Made by a program: the position numbers and the translations under genes. Below the pieces are notes generated by a model. It saw only the letters and a list, made by a program, of their open reading frames with translations. It searched no databases and was not told the DNA's origin. Below, piece by piece: positions 3,498 through 21,216 of a DNA stretch of 32,000 nt. How positions within the stretch are numbered: the first letter of the stretch is position 1; each line of letters opens with the position of its first letter. The stretch comes from Candidatus Nitrospira inopinata (GTDB lineage: Bacteria > Nitrospirota > Nitrospiria > Nitrospirales > Nitrospiraceae): contig NZ_LN885086.1 in NCBI RefSeq assembly GCF_001458695.1, positions 300,001-332,000 on the forward strand, read 5' to 3'.

Positions 3498-4559
3498 TCA
3501 CACGAACGCGGGAAGCGGCGCATAGGCCATCGGATGGCCGATCAACCGTTCGAGCCATTCGGCCATGGCGTCTTCCTTGAGCGGAGCGCGGTTCAAGCGC
3601 GCTTCGATCTGAAACCTGCCGTCGGCGCCGACGACCCCGATGATCGCCGACGCCTCGCCGCCGTCCGGGACGACGTCCTGAGTCTGAAATTCGCAGAGCG
3701 TGGCGTACAGGCGACCGTCCGGTTCGATCGCGCGCAACACGTCGGGCAGTTCGTCCAGCGGGCAATGGACCGAGCACCGATACGCGAGCCGGACGTCGCC
3801 TTCGATGGTCTGGAACTCCGTGAGCCCCGCCTCCGAAAAACCGGTGAGGTAGGCCCGCACGTCGGCAGGCTCCGGAGCGAACGTCTCCGCCAGCTTGCTC
3901 GCCGACACCAGGAACTCATAGGCGTCGGCGGAGTTGTATTCGAACTGACAAGGGCCGAACGCATCGGGCCAGGAACAAAAAAACGGAACGGACGCATCGT
4001 GCGGTCGCAGAACGACTCTCTCGCGGTCGATCGCCGTGTCCACGGGCAGTTCCAGCGCCGTGATGGCCTCCAAAAACGCCACGCGGCGCTCATCCAACCA
4101 TCGAGCCCGCTCGGCGTCGCCCCGCGTTTCCCCCGGCGTGATGACCTCGTGCGTATGCAGCCGAATCCGAACGAAGGAATGGGCATGGCGGAACCCCAAC
4201 CACAACATGCCGCGTTGCGCGTGCAGGCGCAACGGCTCGCGCACCCGCCACGGATGGCTGATGGAACAATAGGTGCCGATGTCCTGGTTCGTGCGATAGA
4301 CGGTATGGTAGGCGCCGGCCAACAGGAAGAAGTCGCCGCGCCACCGTTCGCGGACGTGCACCAGCGTCACGTCCTCGGTAGCCCACGCGTCGAGCTGATC
4401 AAAGTCGTCAGGCGAACGAACCGTCCACTCTTCCACGTAGCAGATGACGTCTTGGGCGGGCGACGCCGGCTTGAGGCCGAGCGCCGACAGCCGCTCCCCG
4501 ACCTCGATCACCTGGCCGAAGGTCAGGGGCACCGTCGTTTCCCATCGCCGCTCACGCAC
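3498..4559 (-). CDS. Hypothetical protein (353 aa), no recognisable domain
   Basis: Third codon positions are G/C-rich and the amino-acid composition is balanced (W/Y/F/D/E), unlike the Arg/Ala/Gly-rich ORF on the opposite strand. GTG start with AAGGA 7 nt upstream. Confidence 0.65.
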   Translation of the reverse strand: MRERRWETTVPLTFGQVIEVGERLSALGLKPASPAQDVICYVEEWTVRSPDDFDQLDAWATEDVTLVHVRERWRGDFFLLAGAYHTVYRTNQDIGTYCSISHPWRVREPLRLHAQRGMLWLGFRHAHSFVRIRLHTHEVITPGETRGDAERARWLDERRVAFLEAITALELPVDTAIDRERVVLRPHDASVPFFCSWPDAFGPCQFEYNSADAYEFLVSASKLAETFAPEPADVRAYLTGFSEAGLTEFQTIEGDVRLAYRCSVHCPLDELPDVLRAIEPDGRLYATLCEFQTQDVVPDGGEASAIIGVVGADGRFQIEARLNRAPLKEDAMAEWLERLIGHPMAYAPLPAFV

Positions 4560-5391: not shown

Positions 5392-6072
5392 TTACGGCGC
5401 GACAAGAGGGAGCATGGCCCGAAACGTCTCACAACCCAATCGCGGCAAGTCTCCCGCCTGAATCCGAGGGTCGGTCAGCGGCAGACATCGAACGATCTTA
5501 AAAAAGGGCCGTTCGGCCAGCACGGCGGCGAGTTGCGCCTTTCGATCATGAGTGATCGGAAGGGTATAGCCTTCGCCACGTTTCCATTCCCACAAGGTGG
5601 GAGCCAAAGACAGTTCCAGTCCCTGTCCGGCCAACTGATGAAACCGATTGACAAAGTGTTTCTTGTATTGCCTGACCTCGTCGCCTTCCAGGAGCCACGC
5701 CCACGCGACGTGATGCCCCCACCAGAACAAGGTGCGGAACGTAAACGCATCGCCCCCGCGGAAATGTTTGGGAAAGTCCAGATACTGATAGGGGAAATCC
5801 TCAAGATGTTCCCCTTTCACGAGCTGATACGCCTGCGGATTGAAACCGACTGGACCCGCCAACGGCACTTCGGCCAGCGCCGTTTTCAGGAAATGATGCG
5901 CGGTTTCCAATTGCACCCGCACCTTCGCGGTAATCGCGGCCTTCTTCCGAAAAAACCGCGCGTCGGCGACCAGCGCGGTCTCCTCATCGGTCAAAGTGAC
6001 GGAGGTCGGCGTCTTCACGAAGCGCTCATCCGGACGATAAAGTTCACGGCCGCGATCGATCGGCCGGCACAC
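5392..6072 (-). CDS. Hypothetical protein (about 226 aa)
   Basis: Coding-like composition, e.g. ...FPYQYLDFPKHFRGGDAFTFRTLFWWGHHVAWAWLLEG... I placed the start at the GTG at 6072, 1 nt after the upstream gene's TAG. The ORF track's start at 6114 would overlap that gene by 41 nt. Confidence 0.55.
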   Translation of the reverse strand: MCRPIDRGRELYRPDERFVKTPTSVTLTDEETALVADARFFRKKAAITAKVRVQLETAHHFLKTALAEVPLAGPVGFNPQAYQLVKGEHLEDFPYQYLDFPKHFRGGDAFTFRTLFWWGHHVAWAWLLEGDEVRQYKKHFVNRFHQLAGQGLELSLAPTLWEWKRGEGYTLPITHDRKAQLAAVLAERPFFKIVRCLPLTDPRIQAGDLPRLGCETFRAMLPLVAP

Positions 6073-6073
6073 G

Positions 6074-6439
6074 CTATTTCTGATGCGTCTCGAAGATCGA
6101 CACCCGCAACACATAGTGGCGTCGGCACTCCGCGCACCGAAGCACCACTGAATCTTGGAACACGTCCATCTCGCGGAGCGTCATCGACGCCCGATGAACG
6201 GTCGCGCACGTGTTCAACAGCAGATCGCCCGGCACAGTCGTCGGAGCGTGATCGCCGGCGGTCCGCGCGGCCGACTCCCGGGCTTCCACCGACTCGACCG
6301 TCACATGATGGGCCGACCGACAAGAGCTGCACGACAAAACGACCGTCCGGCCCTCCTCCATTCGCGCGACGGTCACGCAGAGAGGATGGACCGACCAACA
6401 TTGTTGAAGAAACGCGCCGCTGCGGATGATATGCGCCAT
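6074..6439 (-). CDS. Small Cys-rich protein with an internally duplicated CxxC knuckle (zinc-ribbon-like)
   Basis: VVLSCSSCRSAHHVTVESVE and VVLRCAECRRHYVLRVSIFE form an internal repeat. The start at MAHIIRSG (6439) is tentative because no Shine-Dalgarno sequence is visible. Confidence 0.5.
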   Translation of the reverse strand: MAHIIRSGAFLQQCWSVHPLCVTVARMEEGRTVVLSCSSCRSAHHVTVESVEARESAARTAGDHAPTTVPGDLLLNTCATVHRASMTLREMDVFQDSVVLRCAECRRHYVLRVSIFETHQK

Positions 6440-6599
6440 GATTTGCTCGTCAGAAAAGTGCCGCCGGGCCCGAGGGGACGGGGCGGCACCGCGGCGCGCA
6501 GGACCAAGCAAGCCAAGCCACCGTCACAGCCGGAACCACGGGAGACTTCCCCCGACCTGTCCGCCTTTGGTCTTCAAGAAGCCGCAGGGAAATAGGCCG

Positions 6600-6935
6600 T
6601 CACCACTTCCAGGACGCCAGCATCACGGCCCAACCGGTCACGTACGGGATGACGCAGGAGTAGAACACGGCCGCCTTCGCCCGCCCGGAGGAAACGTTCA
6701 TCGAACGCTGTTCCTTATAGACGAACTCGTACGACAGGATCAGCACCGTGGCCGTCAGGATCAGGACGCGACTCGTCTGCGGCCATGAATAGTGCCCGCT
6801 CACCACGAAGTTCGCCGTCAAGAATCCGCTGACCCACAGGACCGACGGAGCCAACACCCATCGGATGGCCTCGGGAAACAGCCGCTGTCTGATTGAATGC
6901 GTCCGGAGAGAATCGAATCGCGAGCCGGAACTCAT
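6600..6935 (-). CDS. Small 3-TM membrane protein (111 aa), hypothetical
   Basis: Its ATG overlaps the upstream stop codon (ATGA at 6932-6935). Hydrophobic segments: WVLAPSVLWVSGFLTANFVV, VLILTATVLILSYEFV, AAVFYSCVIPYVTGWAVMLA. Confidence 0.6.
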   Translation of the reverse strand: MSSGSRFDSLRTHSIRQRLFPEAIRWVLAPSVLWVSGFLTANFVVSGHYSWPQTSRVLILTATVLILSYEFVYKEQRSMNVSSGRAKAAVFYSCVIPYVTGWAVMLASWKW

Positions 6936-7225
6936 GACCCGACGGCGGCAGGAATATCGGAACCCTTGGCCGAGGACGGAACCGCGGCGCCCTCTTGCGC
7001 AGTCCGGCAGGCCTTGCACACTCGGGGTCGCGCTTTCAAAAAGGAAACCTTCCCGCTCGCCAAACAACTGTAATGGACGAACTCGTCGCACACCGTGCAG
7101 CGGGACCAGCCGCCTCGAAACAACGTGGTGTCGCGATACAGACCCTGCTTGCAAACTTTGCAATGGCGCGGTTCGACCGGGAGCAACATCGGCTCCCATT
7201 CGCCGCCAGCTTTTCGGATACTCAT
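6932..7225 (-). CDS. Small cross-brace zinc-finger protein with PHD-type C4HC3 spacing
   Basis: CKVC-x17-CTVC-x4-H-x2-C-x15-CKAC, read directly from the translation. The protein is 97 aa. Confidence 0.6.
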   Translation of the reverse strand: MSIRKAGGEWEPMLLPVEPRHCKVCKQGLYRDTTLFRGGWSRCTVCDEFVHYSCLASGKVSFLKARPRVCKACRTAQEGAAVPSSAKGSDIPAAVGS

Positions 7226-7397
7226 GGAAGGGGAGTATAACGAGACAATCGGCGGAAAAACAAGCGAGCGTCTTGACGGAAATCTGAGGAGACCACCCTG
7301 TATGGCTCGGGCATGCCGGCAGGCGAAGACGAGACAATACGCCCGAGACCGATCCCTTTCGGCGAGCTCTCTCGATCAGTTCTTCGTACACGGACGC

Positions 7398-7562
7398 TCA
7401 GTGCCCGACGGCCATCACACGAATGACCCGCGCGCTCTGATCGACGGCATAGACAATGCGAAAGCGGCCAACGCGACACGTGCGCAGCCCCTCAAGCTCG
7501 CGCGTAAGTGGCTCTCCGCCTGCGGGGCTCGTGGCGATCATTCGAACGGCCGCCTTGATGGG
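7398..7562 (-). pseudogene. RelE/ParE-family toxin remnant, N-terminally interrupted by an in-frame TGA
   Basis: Translation PIKAAVRMIATSPAGGEPLTRELEGLRTCRVGRFRIVYAVDQSARVIRVMAVGH* carries the RelE/ParE C-terminal signature (L.GEL.G....RVG.YRI.Y.VD....V.V..VGH). An in-frame TGA lies immediately upstream (LQR*PIK) and there is no usable start codon. A 42-aa ORF at 7589-7717 may be the antitoxin remnant. Confidence 0.55.
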
Positions 7563-7729
7563 TCACCTCTGCAACATGCGGAGGGGCGTCAAGGCGAAAA
7601 GGGTGCGCGCTTTACGCCGTTTCTTGGGAACAACGAGGAGGCGCCGAAGACATCCTCGAACGAGAGACCTTTCCGTTTCTTAACGTCAAGCGCCCGACTC
7701 TCGGCGATCTGGCTCATCACGCGATACGC

Positions 7730-8092
7730 TCATGCCCGAATACTTTTCCACCAAGCACCTATATGGTGTGCTACGAGCACGACGAGGGCAAACGTGAGTA
7801 ATCCGATTGACCAGGACAACATCCAGTTGGGTGGTTCAGCACAGGAGAACCACAGCCCCAGCGTGTTGTTCCAGAAGCCATGGAAGAACAAGAGCACGCC
7901 GGACACGACCAACGGGGCATCAGCCAACGTGAGCAGGAGGGAAGTCGTTTTGAGCTTCTTCTTTTCCTCGTTTTGAGCATTTTTGATCCGGTCAATCAAC
8001 CGCAGCCGTATCGTAGCGACATAGGCCGAGAGGGCGACAATCAGGGTCAGGAGGGCGATCGCGTCAGAAGTGGGCAAAAAGTCGTGAGTCAT
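7730..8092 (-). CDS. Small 3-TM membrane protein (120 aa), hypothetical; downstream partner of the pore-domain gene
   Basis: Three hydrophobic helices and a Lys/Glu-rich loop (KNAQNEEKKKLK). It starts 64 nt downstream of the 8157-9059 gene on the same strand. The local sequence is low in GC. Confidence 0.6.
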   Translation of the reverse strand: MTHDFLPTSDAIALLTLIVALSAYVATIRLRLIDRIKNAQNEEKKKLKTTSLLLTLADAPLVVSGVLLFFHGFWNNTLGLWFSCAEPPNWMLSWSIGLLTFALVVLVAHHIGAWWKSIRA

Positions 8093-8156
8093 TGTCCAGC
8101 CTTCGCGGCTACCAGATCAACGCCATCATTCGATGTCCGATTCACGCGCTCTTTCT

Positions 8157-9059
8157 TTATCGTTTTGTAAGGAACGTTACTCCGGTTCCAACGAGCACGA
8201 AGGCCGTCAGTGCGTGCGCGATAACGACCATTTGGCCGAACCCGCTCTGGGGAGTGAAGTTCGTGTACGCGCCAAAAGCGAAAAGATTGATGAACGCGAG
8301 GAAAATCGCCGCCCAAACTCGGCCGCTTTGATCGAGGCCGTTATGAGCTTCCGCAAGAACGACGCCGTCGCCACCCAGCAGGTAGCCGTACAAACATGAA
8401 AAGACCACGATTGAGAGAATGAAAAATATGGTCCACCGGCGAGGGCTGGTTCCATACCTGGTTACACCGCCCCAAATTGCAAGCACGAAGCACAGCAGTA
8501 AATCGTTCTCGCGCCAGGAGCGAAGTCGTTTAATGTCAAGCCGGAGAGCATGGGCTTCATCGCTCTTCTCTTCTTCCCCAAGATCTGAGAATTGAGCTTT
8601 AGCCCTTCCCGCCGACCTCAGCACGAGTTCAAGGGTCTGTTTCACACCTTCGCCTTTCGCGCTGTCCTGTTTTGAAACATTGAACGCCCGTAACGCAGAA
8701 TTGAAGTAGCATTGCACGGAACGCTCGAGCAAATCCAATTGCCGCAGCTCATTGGCCGCAAAGTGGTAGTACTCCGCAATGATGTCTGCGCGCTCGGCGT
8801 TGATGGTCTTCCCAGCGCCAAATGCTTCGTGCTTTGCCAGAACAAGGTACGCAAGGGCTGCGTCCAACCGTTTTTCTCTTTCTGTGCTGCCGCGGGCGGC
8901 TTGGGCGGTTTTCAGCAATCTTTCCCTCAGAAGCTCTAAAGACGCTTCGGCAGCACTTTTCAGTTCTCTCTCGTGTTTCTCCAACTTTTCGTTTGCGGTC
9001 GGATCACTGAACTTGTCCAACGGATAGTATGTGTAGTTGTGTCCGCCAAGAATGTTCAT
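8157..9059 (-). CDS. Uncharacterised protein: all-helical N-terminal domain of about 190 aa fused to a C-terminal 2-TM pore-loop (Ion_trans_2-like) domain with a degenerate filter
   Basis: ATG at 9059 is preceded by AAGGAAG. The C-terminus reads TM1 WTIFFILSIVVFSCLYGYLLG, pore-helix-like VWAAIFLAFINLFAFGAYTNFTP, TM2 GFGQMVVIAHALTAFVLVGTGVTFL. The position of the K+ filter motif T-x-G-Y/F-G-D reads AFGAYTN. Confidence 0.6.
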   Translation of the reverse strand: MNILGGHNYTYYPLDKFSDPTANEKLEKHERELKSAAEASLELLRERLLKTAQAARGSTEREKRLDAALAYLVLAKHEAFGAGKTINAERADIIAEYYHFAANELRQLDLLERSVQCYFNSALRAFNVSKQDSAKGEGVKQTLELVLRSAGRAKAQFSDLGEEEKSDEAHALRLDIKRLRSWRENDLLLCFVLAIWGGVTRYGTSPRRWTIFFILSIVVFSCLYGYLLGGDGVVLAEAHNGLDQSGRVWAAIFLAFINLFAFGAYTNFTPQSGFGQMVVIAHALTAFVLVGTGVTFLTKR

Positions 9060-9431
9060 GAATCTTCCTTGCCGCAAACCGATGTCAGCCCATGTCGTCT
9101 TGAAAGCTTTCCTTCAACGTCCGTTAAAGCCCATAAACATTCCACGGATTCGGCAGGGCATCATAAGCCAATGCCGTTTTTCTCACAACGGGCAACCGTC
9201 CATGAACCACTTACGATAGCCCCTGTGGTGATTGGCATGATGCTCCTTCTTTTTTATGAGACTCACCCTCAACTTACTGCCATGCCGCGTTCCCTGATTC
9301 CTGACCAGAACCTCGAACAAAGTCTCCTCTCTCTTTCCCCCGTGCTTCTCCCCTTTGACCTGCTCCCCCGCCGTTTGCTACGCTCCGCGCGGGCCGGTCA
9401 GGATCACCAGCACCAGTGGAAGGGGGCCTCC

Positions 9432-10322
9432 ATGACCATCACCGACTATCTTGAAGCCAAACGGCTGGCCGTTGATCAATTTCTCGATCAAGTGACGCCA
9501 CCAGCCGTCACGCCGCCGGCCACGCTCCATGAGAGCATGCGCTATAGCCTCATGGCGGGCGGCAAACGGATTCGACCGATTTTGACCGTCGCCGCGGCCG
9601 AGGCGGTCGGCGGCGATGCGCCGGGGCTGATGGCCGTCGCCTGTTCGCTCGAATTGATCCATACCTATTCGCTCATCCACGACGACCTCCCGTCGATGGA
9701 CAACGATGACTACCGGCGCGGCAAGCCGACGAACCACAAGGTCTATGGCGAGGCCATCGCGATTCTCACGGGCGACGCGCTGCTCACCATGGCCTTTGAC
9801 TGGATCAGCCGTCCAGACCTCATGAAGGGCTGCGATTCGGCGAGGCAAGTACGGCTGATCCAAGAACTGGCCCATGGCGCCGGCAACCGGGGCATGGTGG
9901 GAGGTCAAGTCCTTGACATCCAGGCCGAGAACCGGGACATCGATCTGCCGGCCTTGCAAACGATCCACAAGCACAAGACCGGCATGTTGATCCGCGCGGC
10001 GGTCCGGATGGGGGCGATCGCCGCCGGGGCGACCGACCGGCAGCTCGATGACCTGACCGGCTACGCCGAGGACATCGGCCTGGCCTTTCAGATCGCCGAC
10101 GATGTGCTGAACGTCACCGGCACGCGCGAAGAGTTGGGCAAGAATCCGAATACCGACGCGGAACGGGGAAAGAAAACCTACCCCGCGTTTTACGGCGTGG
10201 ATGGCGCCAGACGATTGGCGGACGACTGTGTGGAGCGGGCCATCGGGCGGCTTTCGTCCTTTGGGCCGACCGCCGATCCGCTCCGCGAGATCGCCCGCTA
10301 CATCACCGCTCGCAAACACTAG
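9432..10322 (+). CDS. ispA: Polyprenyl (farnesyl/geranylgeranyl) diphosphate synthase
   Basis: First Asp-rich motif LIHDDLPSMDNDDYRRGKPT and second motif FQIADDVLN are present, with the GKRIRP context. I chose the ATG at 9432; the N-terminal 153 aa of the ORF track's 449-aa ORF is non-coding. Confidence 0.9.
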   Translation: MTITDYLEAKRLAVDQFLDQVTPPAVTPPATLHESMRYSLMAGGKRIRPILTVAAAEAVGGDAPGLMAVACSLELIHTYSLIHDDLPSMDNDDYRRGKPTNHKVYGEAIAILTGDALLTMAFDWISRPDLMKGCDSARQVRLIQELAHGAGNRGMVGGQVLDIQAENRDIDLPALQTIHKHKTGMLIRAAVRMGAIAAGATDRQLDDLTGYAEDIGLAFQIADDVLNVTGTREELGKNPNTDAERGKKTYPAFYGVDGARRLADDCVERAIGRLSSFGPTADPLREIARYITARKH

Positions 10323-10389
10323 GAGCCACCTGTCCGATGCCTGGGATTTCGATGCGTGACCGGCTCCATCCTGACGGATCGTCTCTGCG

Positions 10390-11373
10390 ATGAACGCTCT
10401 CGTCACCGGCGCAACAGGGTTTGTAGGGGGCGCGGTGGCTCGCGCGCTCGTGCGAGCCGGCTACGAAGTCCGGGTATTGACCAGACCCCACGCTGACTTG
10501 CGCAATCTCGATCGGCTGCCGGTCAAACGAGTTGTCGGCGATCTGCGCGATCCCGCCTCGCTCCGAGCGGCGCTTAGGGGCTGTCGCCATCTCTACCATG
10601 TCGCGGCCCACTATGCGCTCTGGGCCAAGAACCCCTCCATCTTTTACGAAGTCAACGTGACCGGTACCGTCAATCTCCTGGAGGCAGCCCGCGACGTCGG
10701 CACGGAGCGCATCGTCTATTGCAGCACGATCGGGGCCATCGGCTTGCCTCCGGACGGAGGGCTGGGCACCGAGGAGACGCCCGTGTCGCTTTCGCAAATG
10801 GCGGGACATTACAAACGATCAAAGTATCTCGCCGAGCGGGAAGTCCTGCGTCTCGCCAAGGAGGGGCTGCCGGTCGTGATCGTCAATCCGAGCGCGCCGG
10901 TTGGAGCGGGGGACGTAAAACCGACCCCGACCGGGCAAATCATCGTCGATTTCATGAAGGGCCGCATGCCGGCCTACATCGAGACGGGCATGAACATCGT
11001 GGACGTGGACGATGTGGCGCAAGGCCACTTGTTAGCCATGCAAAAGGGGCGGGTCGGCGAACGGTACATCCTGGGCGGCAAGAATCTCCTGCTGCGCGAG
11101 GTGTTCGAGATTCTGAGCACCGTGACAGGCGTGAAGGCCCCGCGGCTCAAGTTGCCGCGCCTGGCGGTGCTGCCCCTGGCTTACGTCAATCATTGGGTCG
11201 CCAACATGACCGGCATCCCGCCGCGGATTCCGCTCGAAGGGGTCAAGATGGCCAAGTACATGATGCACTATGACTGTTCCAAGGCGATTCGCGAACTCGG
11301 CATCCCCCAGACCCCTCCCGAAGTCGCGATCGAAAAGGCCGTGCGGTGGTTCAAAGCCCACGGCTACGTGTGA
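10390..11373 (+). CDS. hpnA: NAD-dependent epimerase/dehydratase, hopanoid-associated sugar epimerase (HpnA)-like
   Basis: VTGATGFVGGAVARAL Rossmann motif, YKRSK catalytic motif, and PVVIVNPSAPVGAGDVKPTPTGQIIVDFMKGRMPAYIETGMNIVDVDDVAQGHLLAMQKGRVGERYILGG, which closely follows my recollection of HpnA. Confidence 0.75.
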   Translation: MNALVTGATGFVGGAVARALVRAGYEVRVLTRPHADLRNLDRLPVKRVVGDLRDPASLRAALRGCRHLYHVAAHYALWAKNPSIFYEVNVTGTVNLLEAARDVGTERIVYCSTIGAIGLPPDGGLGTEETPVSLSQMAGHYKRSKYLAEREVLRLAKEGLPVVIVNPSAPVGAGDVKPTPTGQIIVDFMKGRMPAYIETGMNIVDVDDVAQGHLLAMQKGRVGERYILGGKNLLLREVFEILSTVTGVKAPRLKLPRLAVLPLAYVNHWVANMTGIPPRIPLEGVKMAKYMMHYDCSKAIRELGIPQTPPEVAIEKAVRWFKAHGYV

Positions 11374-11522
11374 CGCGCGACCGTCTCCCTCTTCACATGA
11401 ACTGCGCCGGCCTTGCACCGGCAGGAGGAGCATGGTACCGTTCCGCCCGACTGTTTATGACTCGTGATCCTGAGCGAACTCAACGGATTGACTCCGGGCG
11501 GGGCTGTCGCACCTGACGATCG

Positions 11523-12359
11523 ATGGACTTCATTCTCCTGTTCCTCAAGACCGTGGCCTTCCGGCCCTACGTGTTTGTCTTCTTGGCCGCCTTTCTCTAC
11601 GCCGGCACGCAATTGCTCGGCTGGCGCCGTACCTGGCGCTTTTGGCTGATCAGTTGGGTCACGGCGTTCGTCTGCGAGTACGCCTCGACGCGCACGGGCA
11701 TCCCCTTCGGCTGGTACTTCTACAACGGGTCCACGGTGGGACAGGAGCTGTACATCGCCAACGTGCCGTTCATGGATTCGATCTCGTTCAGTTTTCTCCT
11801 CTATGCCGCCTATTGCGTGGCCCTGTGTCTTCTGTTGCCCGCTGGCGGATACTCGCTTCTTGGGCGTTTCAGGTTGAAACAGCTTCGCTTCAGCGAGCAC
11901 ACACGCACCGGCCTGCCCGTGCTGGCCCTGACCGTGTTTCTGTTCATGTTCATCGACATGGTGATCGATCCCGTGGCGCTGCGCGGCGACCGGTGGTTTC
12001 TCGGCAAGATTTACTACTACCCCGACCCTGGCGTTCACTTCGGCGTGCCGTTTGCCAACTATGTCGGCTGGGCGGTCGTCGGAACCCTGTCCCTCGCCGT
12101 CTATGTTCCGATTGACCGTCGATTGCCACCTCCTCCCCGTTCCGACTCGCCGACTCCCCGCCTGCTCCTGGGGGTGGGACTCTATTACGGCGTCCTGTTC
12201 TTCAATCTAGGCGTCACCTTCTGGATCGGCGAATGGTTCATGGGGGCCAGCGGCCTGCTGATGCACCTGCCGATTCTGGGGCTCCTGATCCATCGGGTCG
12301 TGGAATTCCCCTCCACATTCTCTTCTTCCTATCGCGGCGACGTCCCGGTGAAAAACTGA
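11523..12359 (+). CDS. Polytopic membrane protein, carotenoid-biosynthesis-protein family (DUF422-like)
   Basis: Seven to eight TM helices with segments such as TRTGIPFGWYFY and VPFANYVGWAVVG. The family assignment is from memory and is moderate at best. Confidence 0.55.
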   Translation: MDFILLFLKTVAFRPYVFVFLAAFLYAGTQLLGWRRTWRFWLISWVTAFVCEYASTRTGIPFGWYFYNGSTVGQELYIANVPFMDSISFSFLLYAAYCVALCLLLPAGGYSLLGRFRLKQLRFSEHTRTGLPVLALTVFLFMFIDMVIDPVALRGDRWFLGKIYYYPDPGVHFGVPFANYVGWAVVGTLSLAVYVPIDRRLPPPPRSDSPTPRLLLGVGLYYGVLFFNLGVTFWIGEWFMGASGLLMHLPILGLLIHRVVEFPSTFSSSYRGDVPVKN

Positions 12360-20726: not shown

Positions 20727-21000
20727 GAAGATCCTCCTCGCTTGGTCGAGTCGAACACGGGATGCAGTCGTTGCGACGGACCGCAAGGAGGCGGCGCCGG
20801 ACCGAAACGCGCAGAAAAACACAGACGCGTTCGGGCCGACCGGCATCCCCGCGGATGCTTCATCACGCCCACAAAAATGGAGAGGAGACGGTCGTGAGAT
20901 CGGGACGGAAGAAAAGACGTGACCCCGAGCCAGCTCAGACCGACCGCCCTCCCTCGAGGCGTCAAGGTCGAACCGGTTTCGGTTGTCTCTCCGTCGCCGG

Positions 21001-21180
21001 GTGCCGGCAGGTCTTCGGGCTCGCGAGCATATCGGCTGTCGCCGATCGCCTTCCCCGCGACTTCCCGGCCTCCTCGGCCAGTGTTTGCTTGCGGGGTCGT
21101 TCTCGCTTACCGCTGCGGGGCAGCCCCGGATTCACACCGGGTTCCCTCTTCGTCACCGACGAACGTCGGTGAACCAGCAC
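21001..21180 (-). promoter_or_regulatory. Cobalamin (B12) riboswitch aptamer in the nrdA leader
   Basis: The minus strand reads GTGCTGGttCACCGACgttcGTCGGTGacgAAGAGGGAAcCCGGTGTGAATCCGGGgCTGCCCCGCAGCGGTAAGcg...aaCACTGGCCgaggaGGCCGGGAAGtc...GAGCCCGAAGACCTGCCGGCAC. The conserved AGGGAA, GGTG.GAA.CC, CCCGC..C.GTAA and CACTG..GGGAAG elements and the B12 box (GCCCGAAGACCTGCC) are all present. P1 is GTGCTGG (21180-21174) pairing with CCGGCAC (21007-21001). Confidence 0.9.
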
Positions 21181-21187
21181 GCGCGGG

Positions 21188-21216
21188 AGTCTAGAAGGGC
21201 GCGATCATGTTGTCAA
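21188..21216 (-). promoter_or_regulatory. Sigma70-type promoter, TTGACA-N17-TAGACT, placing the transcription start just upstream of riboswitch P1
   Basis: -35 TTGACA at 21216-21211, -10 TAGACT at 21193-21188, 17-nt spacer. P1 of the riboswitch begins at 21180. Confidence 0.55.

Follow-up and report, generated by a model that had tools for sequence, protein, structure and literature searches.

A predicted pore-loop channel with a noncanonical filter and an N-terminal helical domain in Candidatus Nitrospira inopinata

We analyzed a 32 000-nucleotide stretch of the genome of Candidatus Nitrospira inopinata (contig NZ_LN885086.1, positions 300,001–332,000 of the forward strand; hereafter the window, whose own numbering is used below), concentrating on two adjacent minus-strand genes, A and B. 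Gene A (8157..9059) encodes 300 residues from an ATG start, consisting of a helical cytoplasmic domain and what is very probably a two-transmembrane (2-TM) pore-loop channel domain. Gene B (7730..8092) encodes a 120-residue protein with three TM segments by hydropathy and lies downstream of A on the same strand, separated from it by exactly 64 nt. The hydropathy profile of A shows hydrophobic segments at residues ∼209–231, 246–266 and 272–298. An earlier, sequence-only reading of this locus had listed the two open reading frames (ORFs), their spacing, their membrane topology and the string AFGAYTN in the presumed filter of A, all of which are present in the sequence. The region upstream of A (9060..9200, minus strand) contains a Shine–Dalgarno sequence, AAGGAAG (9064–9070), and a sigma-70-like hexamer pair (9188–9160); the promoter scan returned two sites against 0.7 expected, which is a weak signal. 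An alternative TTG start upstream of A would yield 306 residues, but homologues begin at the ATG. Both genes differ in composition from their surroundings. The G+C content is 0.529 for A and 0.537 for B, with values at third codon positions (GC3) of 0.595 and 0.686, respectively, compared with a GC3 of 0.78–0.80 in the three flanking biosynthetic genes (a polyprenyl synthase, an epimerase and a member of a carotenoid-synthesis family), and segment 7269–9114 is the lowest-GC 1.8 kb stretch of the window.

Both A and B can be regarded as real genes. Relative to their orthologues in Nitrospira sp. W63, A and B have ratios of nonsynonymous to synonymous substitution rates of 0.34 and 0.23, respectively, and each protein has relatives. 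For B these number ten, at 38–94% identity, while for A a word-indexed search of 5.8 billion proteins returned 29 and an exhaustive profile (hidden Markov model) search of 1.84 billion cluster representatives returned 300 representatives. Scans of both proteins against Pfam, NCBIfam, PADLOC and PHROGs gave nothing above threshold, leaving aside a sub-cutoff match of A to the Hailong effector HalA that is discussed below, and no defense model of PADLOC-DB v2 matched either protein at E ≤ 1, in agreement with the earlier statement that neither could be matched to a named defense or transport system. The relatives of A fall into tiers. The distant matches to the A profile cover only residues ∼155–298 of A, with E values of 1e-9 to 1e-6; all ten of the distant members tested contain Pfam Ion_trans_2 (PF07885) above the gathering threshold and seven of the ten have N-terminal pentapeptide repeats. 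A second tier, hereafter the sister group, consists of full-length relatives that also share the N-terminal domain of A and carry PF07885. Alignment of the A family to 18 sister-group sequences with hhalign gave a probability of 100% and an E value of 4.2e-56 over 282 columns.

The AlphaFold2 model of full-length A, which was calculated from the family alignment, has a predicted local distance difference test score (pLDDT) of 86 and a predicted template-modeling score (pTM) of 0.81. It contains seven helices over residues 20–183, followed by a helix at 187–202, TM1 (206–228), a short re-entrant helix (247–260) and TM2 (273–299). The C-terminal part can be divided into successive elements, all encoded on the minus strand. 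The first is a juxtamembrane amphipathic slide helix (8445..8504; residues 186–205) with the motif W-x(3)-T-x-Y-G-T-S-x(2)-R-W, of which W, G, S and the second W are invariant (alignment A2). It corresponds to helix 187–202 of the model; its motif recurs in proteins that combine pentapeptide repeats with Ion_trans_2, and the Kir and KirBac channels among the top fold matches also bear a slide helix. The outer helix TM1 (8373..8444; residues 206–229) is supported by hydropathy, by the model and by its alignment with the corresponding helix of the Slack pore domain. The pore helix (8280..8321; residues 247–260, RVWAAIFLAFINLF) aligns to the pore helices of Slack, NaK and the sister group, and is followed by the filter loop described below and by the inner helix TM2 (8163..8243; residues 273–299), which ends in the conserved sequence GTGVTFLT(R/K)R.

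A Foldseek search of the Protein Data Bank (PDB) with the full-length model was swamped by generic helical-repeat matches, and the pore emerged once the C-terminal domain (residues 186–300) had been modeled alone (pLDDT 82). Among the top 50 PDB matches to this monomer model, 49 are tetrameric pore-loop channels, including KirBac (PDB entry 2wll), a Kir chimera (2qks), KcsA, ionotropic glutamate (NMDA) receptors and plant Shaker channels. The target TM-score is 0.65 for NaK2K (3t4d; root-mean-square deviation of 2.5 Å for 92 columns) and 0.72 for a Kv pore (4h37). In a library of viral structures (BFVD) the same domain matched a Marseillevirus Kir-like channel and Rhizochromulina virus K channels. 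At the sequence level, the best PDB match of the C-terminal profile is the pore domain of Slack/KCNT1 (5a6e; E = 0.009), in register from TM1 through the pore helix and filter to TM2, and the single sequence of A weakly matches NaK. The C-terminal 115 residues of A therefore very probably represent a divergent pore of the tetrameric cation-channel superfamily (Ion_trans_2/KcsA/Kir type), and the earlier proposal of a KcsA-type pore with a non-K+ filter is borne out by the fold search, the PDB profile match, transitive homology and the hhalign alignment. Separately, the only top-50 entry that lacks a channel name, at rank 6, is chain B of 9ma5, which is entitled ‘CryoEM structure of a transmembrane protein’, was released in 2026-03 and, at 313 residues, is close in length to A and to HalA.

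The filter loop of A (8250..8279, minus strand; residues 261–270) reads AFGAYTNFTP and, with one inserted residue, can be aligned to T-V-G-Y-G-D-x-x-P; the AFGAYTN portion comprises residues 261–267 (nucleotides 8259–8279). In the hhalign comparison, the consensus T-x-s-T-v-G-Y-G-D-i-x-P of the sister group is matched by the consensus N-L-f-a-F-G-x-Y-T-n-i-t-P of the A family, which again has one extra residue. A survey of all retrieved sequences gave a clean split between the two groups, with TVGYGD, TLGYGD or TLGFGD in the sister group and F-G-[AGS]-Y-T-[NQ] in the subfamily of A, a small side branch of which has F-G-T-L-G/D-T. Across sequences of the A subfamily that come from several phyla and are only 34–47% identical to A, residues Asn258, Phe262, Gly263 and Pro270 and the C-terminal G-T-G-x-T-F-L are invariant. 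Because the altered motif is conserved across such divergent sequences, the filter of A appears to be functional rather than decayed, which indicates remodeling under selection. The K+ signature T-x-G-Y/F-G-D is absent from A, and A does not qualify as a K+-selective channel by this signature. Loss of the threonine hydroxyl at the base of the filter and of the second glycine, together with replacement of the aspartate, should abolish K+ selectivity. Noncanonical filters nevertheless conduct in NaK, CNG and HCN channels.

The N-terminal domain (8505..9059, minus strand; residues 1–185) is all-helical and predicted to be cytoplasmic, with a hairpin array that resembles those of SNAP, TPR and 14-3-3 proteins. 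Its Foldseek matches consist only of generic helical repeats (α/γ-SNAP, Sec17, 14-3-3, the TPRs of LGN and designed helical repeat proteins), all with E ≥ 0.04, and it belongs to no family of Pfam, NCBIfam, PADLOC or PHROG, as the sequence-only description of a TPR-like domain without a recognizable name had led one to expect. Conservation is concentrated in the motifs YHFAANELR, DLLERSAQCYFN and LRSAGRAKA, and residues Arg56, His99, Asn103, Arg106, Tyr118 and Arg148 are invariant (alignment A1). The clustering of conserved basic and histidine residues suggests an anionic ligand, and the domain is presumed to serve in sensing or gating. It is retained in the sister group with its canonical filters. 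A further set of relatives (P0088–P0113) matches only the N-terminal domain and TM1 and then continues into a different C-terminal hydrophobic helix (…GQLILQR…) that has no P-loop. The domain thus appears to behave as a mobile module that has been joined to membrane ends of different kinds.

Relatives of A are rare and scattered. They occur in four of 185,579 species genomes, namely two Nitrospira, one alphaproteobacterium and Ca. Accumulibacter, so that Nitrospirota, Alphaproteobacteria and Betaproteobacteria are represented, and pattern scans yielded seven metagenome and four genome loci, which placed the context statistics on ∼12 independent neighborhoods. A tyrosine integrase together with small ORFs of no known family lies upstream of the A homologue in a set of related loci (L024–L028; the integrase is noted in L024 and L028), and further tyrosine integrases are found near A in L016, L021 and L022 and in the sister-group locus L031. 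The gene directly downstream of the A homologue in L024–L027 encodes an ATPase that resembles OLD/GajA (PADLOC Old, E = 7.7e-23). In L001–L003 an SLFN_AlbA_2/HATPase_c_4 protein that matches a PADLOC model associated with prokaryotic Argonaute (E = 6e-20) is encoded 59 nt upstream of A, and a PIN7 protein is encoded immediately upstream of it in L030. Genes of toxin–antitoxin type are present near A in L004 (HigB/HTH_3), in L008 (PIN/RHH) and, as a ParE remnant, in the window. Members of the sister group lie beside Fic/HTH_17 in L033 and, in L031, in an island that has an integrase and HTH_3. We compared these neighborhoods by all-against-all clustering of the ORFs within 4 kb on each side in 12 independent context groups of A plus the sister group. 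No neighbor family occurred in three or more of these groups, and the only shared family was the tyrosine integrase (Accumulibacter-type loci and L024). As an observation in its own right, the OLD/GajA/AriA-like ATPase (575–602 residues) is followed by an unannotated 292-residue protein within an integrase-bounded island (7030–9722 in L024; also in L025–L027), and this pair may be an uncharacterized two-gene defense system of the OLD family.

The closest relatives of the locus itself show repeated decay of A. The window is ∼88–93% identical in DNA sequence to contigs of Nitrospira metagenome-assembled genomes (MAGs). In Nitrospira sp. W63 (L013) A and B are both intact and occupy the same slot beside the polyprenyl-synthase/epimerase/carotenoid-synthesis cluster. 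In SRBZ-2_Bin184 (L008/L015), as well as in an independent Logan assembly (L009), A is interrupted by a frameshift at approximately codon 90 and has lost its slide helix and TM1 to a 182-nt deletion, and B is intact. In GCA_024331125.1 (L007), a 708-nt deletion has taken the promoter region and the first 218 codons of A, of which only the last 82 codons remain, and B is frameshifted. The decayed copies of A lie at 3628–4341 of L008, 343–1056 of L009 and 9687–9932 of L007. The alphaproteobacterial copy of A (7995–8900 of L014) is also split, into ORFs of 132 and 118 residues with the middle portion in another frame; it may be one more pseudogene, or the contig, a long one from a MAG, may contain a frameshift error. 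Overall, the distribution, contexts and decay fit an accessory, horizontally moving and dispensable gene that may be costly to its host.

Combining these lines of evidence, A could be a solitary pore-loop channel, encoded by a horizontally mobile gene and responsive to a ligand or signal, that is tetrameric, is gated by a cytoplasmic ring, depolarizes the membrane nonselectively and acts in conflict or abortive infection, and we give this combined reading about an even chance. A defense role taken by itself is held more tentatively and at somewhat less than that. In the proposed mechanism, A would assemble as a tetramer whose four helical domains form a cytoplasmic ring, and this ring would hold the inner gate closed until the binding or removal of a cue. 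As cue, the conserved Arg/His/Lys motifs might bind a protein, a nucleic acid or a small anionic molecule. Once open, the gate would let cations pass nonselectively and depolarize the membrane, and A, as the product of a single gene, would most likely act as an effector in conflict, abortive infection or stress that resembles HalA but possesses another sensor domain and dispenses with the nucleotidyltransferase HalB. Gene B would be unrelated to A and downstream of it by chance.

Several observations weigh against this interpretation. The Foldseek E values of the pore domain are individually weak (0.17–0.8), and the assignment of the fold therefore rests on the uniformity of the matches and on transitive homology. 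A has no direct match to Pfam Ion_trans_2, and only one of 19 family members tested gave one, at E = 0.61; membership of A in the PF07885 clan is accordingly to be read as following from transitive and profile homology and not from the Pfam model itself. The phenylalanine that replaces the filter-base threonine could render the pore nonconducting. A HalA-like effector that lacks a partner to produce its inhibitor would need other means to stay closed. The scan of viral contigs contained no relative of A, and A matches neither PADLOC nor PHROG families. The defense-like neighborhoods are suggestive and anecdotal, and some contexts are metabolic, namely L006 (an Mla transporter and methyltransferases), L016 (a sulfatase-like protein) and L029 (TctC/CMD). 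Finally, A in the Nitrospira clade occupies a fixed syntenic site that has no integrase, tRNA or flanking repeat, which leads us to regard the insertion there as old and now eroding.

The metabolic contexts and the lack of a PADLOC match would also be expected of the alternative that fares best, in which A is an ordinary physiological cation channel that serves ion homeostasis, osmotic or pH stress or the tuning of membrane potential, with the helical domain sensing a metabolite and no part played in conflict. In the sister group the K+ filters are canonical and Ion_trans_2 is the only annotation, and for many K-channel homologues of prokaryotes no part in conflict is known. Against such a physiological function stand the extreme rarity and patchiness of A (4 of 185,579 species), its foreign codon usage and repeated loss in sister strains and the frequency of integrase, toxin–antitoxin or defense-type neighbors, and we consider it unlikely, while keeping it in serious consideration. 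At the other extreme, the conflict reading can be taken further, in that A might found a class of single-gene immunity channels in which a SNAP/TPR-like ring senses a phage or stress cue directly and without a partner, and then opens a HalA-related, non-K+-selective F-G-x-Y-T-N pore that depolarizes the cell and aborts infection, the canonical-filter sister group being the ancestral K+-conducting version. In this full form the conjecture is rather unlikely to be correct. If it were true, the principle of Hailong, in which a cytoplasmic sensor ring gates a pore derived from a K channel, would extend to a partnerless architecture with a different sensor fold.

A third possibility is that the pore of A does not conduct at all and acts only as a tetramerizing membrane anchor, with the helical domain serving as a scaffold, adaptor or receptor. 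The lost K+ signature, with a bulky phenylalanine in place of the filter-base threonine and a threonine in place of the second glycine, would be compatible with an anchor, as would the N-domain relatives P0088–P0113 with their different C-terminal TM helix that lacks a P-loop. However, conservation in A is highest in the altered filter, in the pore helix and in the terminal part of TM2, which is unexpected for a mere anchor, and filters as unorthodox as those of NaK, CNG and HCN do conduct. We judge a nonconducting pore to be improbable.

The sequence-only reading had presented A and B as a two-gene membrane module, in which B might act, for example, as a regulator, immunity protein or assembly partner of the pore. 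The arrangement of the genes (one strand, 64 nt apart and no convincing terminator in between), the lower GC content of both, and their shared fate in W63, where both are intact, and in L007, where both are damaged, are what such a module would show. Their wider distribution is not. Of the 27 retrieved loci that have relatives of A, only the Nitrospira ones also have B; tblastn searches of the full flanks of the non-Nitrospira A loci (Ca. Accumulibacter, the alphaproteobacterial MAG and several metagenomes) did not find B at any of them. Conversely, relatives of B that are 61% and 40% identical lie downstream of CobN or a PEP-CTERM protein, and A is missing from these loci (L010 and L011/L012). 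B is intact where A is dead in L008 and L009, and among the 12 context groups no neighbor family recurs in three or more. Co-occurrence of A and B is confined to one syntenic slot in close Nitrospira relatives, which in substance is the absence of co-occurrence outside this genome by which the sequence-only reading would have abandoned the module, and we find the module very improbable. A role for B as an immunity or regulator partner of A was rejected on co-occurrence. B is better described as a lineage-restricted small membrane protein, whose named relatives come only from Nitrospira MAGs, that may be co-transcribed with A and is not its conserved partner.

Other features of the window lie around this pair. 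Downstream of B, on the minus strand, a 47-residue ORF (7398–7541) matches Pfam ParE_toxin (E = 4.8e-7) at profile positions 39–84 of 89 and NCBIfam RelE_StbE below its cutoff. As it matches just the C-terminal half of the ParE_toxin profile, it can be taken for a dead toxin gene, and it does not constitute a type II toxin–antitoxin system, which would comprise a full-length toxin with a cognate antitoxin. Lower-GC DNA beside a dead RelE/ParE locus, as reported from the sequence alone, is thus confirmed by the GC3 contrast and the truncated ParE match. A 43-residue ORF (7589–7720, minus strand) between B and the ParE remnant is in the position of an antitoxin and may be a decayed one. The segment that contains the remnant (7269–7635) is absent from the Nitrospira locus L007, where other DNA takes its place. 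A search for island boundaries around this low-GC islet found no tRNA and no meaningful direct or inverted repeats. On its other side the islet adjoins a conserved plus-strand cluster (9423–12359) that encodes a polyprenyl synthase, an NAD-dependent epimerase/3-β-HSD-like protein and a Caroten_synth family protein; the cluster is collinear in three other Nitrospira contigs and resembles an isoprenoid, hopanoid or carotenoid lipid locus. Beyond the ParE remnant, two small Cys-rich ORFs on the minus strand (6932–7225 and 6074–6511) have weak subthreshold matches of PHD, C1 or zinc-ribbon type, and the 97-residue Cys-rich ORF is also conserved in L007. Nearby ORFs such as 5392–6114 belong to no family, and this part of the window appears as a run of Nitrospira-specific genes of unknown function. 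A cobalamin riboswitch aptamer (20989–21193, minus strand; Rfam RF00174, 118 bits, full-length model match) is the only Rfam match in the window.

Comparison with characterized proteins places A within a known superfamily, in an architecture and a filter subtype that appear to be unannotated. The description of the locus as an undescribed system was to this extent overstated: the subfamily and its architecture seem to be new, whereas the channel superfamily is known and contains HalA as the nearest curated relative. The family of ∼300 representatives defined here is missed or half-annotated by Pfam, NCBIfam and PADLOC. With KcsA, KirBac and NaK (Ion_trans_2/IRK), A shares the order of slide/M0 helix, TM1, pore helix, filter loop and TM2, as well as weak in-register sequence matches to the NaK and Slack pores. 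It differs from them in lacking the K+ signature and a direct Pfam match, and its presumed gating domain is helical and N-terminal instead of a C-terminal RCK domain, Kir β-sandwich or CNBD. The fusions of pentapeptide repeats to Ion_trans_2 (YjbI-like) have the juxtamembrane motif and pore module in common with A (E ∼1e-9 to 1e-6), but their N-terminal domain is a β-helix and their filter is a canonical GYGD or GFGD. The sister group (for example P0048, P0049, P0057 and P0063) is much closer, being homologous over the full length and of the same size, with the N-domain motifs (Y/F)HFAG(H/N)xFR, (I/L)RSxxRAK and SDxxHxL, the juxtamembrane W..T.YGTS..RW of A and island contexts with integrase, HTH or Fic genes. 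It retains T-(T/V/L)-G-Y/F-G-D and scores above gathering for PF07885, whereas A falls below Pfam detection. If the proposed model is right, the conserved F-G-x-Y-T-N/Q filter and its TxGYGD sister clade would provide channel biophysics with a ready-made evolutionary comparison for selectivity.

The nearest characterized relative of A appears to be HalA. Two reviews that summarize the work of Tan et al. (2025) describe HalA, the effector of the anti-phage system Hailong, as a membrane channel that forms homotetramers and bears a cytoplasmic crown. It is kept closed by an oligodeoxyadenylate made by HalB, loss of this ligand leading to depolarization of the cell (PMC13434031; PMC13276650). The NCBIfam model of HalA (NF051894) is the only one matched recurrently by the family of A (18 of 30 members; best E = 5.3e-6), in the juxtamembrane and TM region. 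A itself scores 19.8 bits, compared with a cutoff of 250 (E = 3.6e-4), over profile positions 207–322 of 338, which correspond to the last cytoplasmic helices and the TM module. The sensor of A is a helical SNAP/TPR-like array, whereas that of HalA appears to contain pentapeptide repeats, judging from matches of the HalA profile to the pentapeptide regions of P0170 and P0163. A solved HalA chain was sought in the PDB with a pentapeptide–Ion_trans_2 query, which yielded pentapeptide proteins of the Qnr/MfpA type and pores of the KcsA type, and among them no chain under the name HalA. No HalB- or nucleotidyltransferase-like gene adjoins A in the window or in the ∼12 homologue contexts, and the ligand and trigger of A must therefore differ from those of HalA. 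That A is a true Hailong HalA effector served by a HalB nucleotidyltransferase encoded elsewhere is hardly credible, since the match to this sole curated family, recurrent as it is, is far below cutoff and confined to the channel module, the N-terminal domain is helical and not a pentapeptide β-helix, the PADLOC Hailong/HalA models do not match A and no nucleotidyltransferase is adjacent; membership of A in Hailong was rejected on score, domain architecture and the missing HalB. The likeness nevertheless extends to size (∼300–340 residues), to the order of an N-terminal cytoplasmic sensor and a C-terminal juxtamembrane and 2-TM channel module, to detectable homology of that module and to an accessory or mobile genomic setting. 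By this analogy, A shares with HalA its channel module and, plausibly, its logic.

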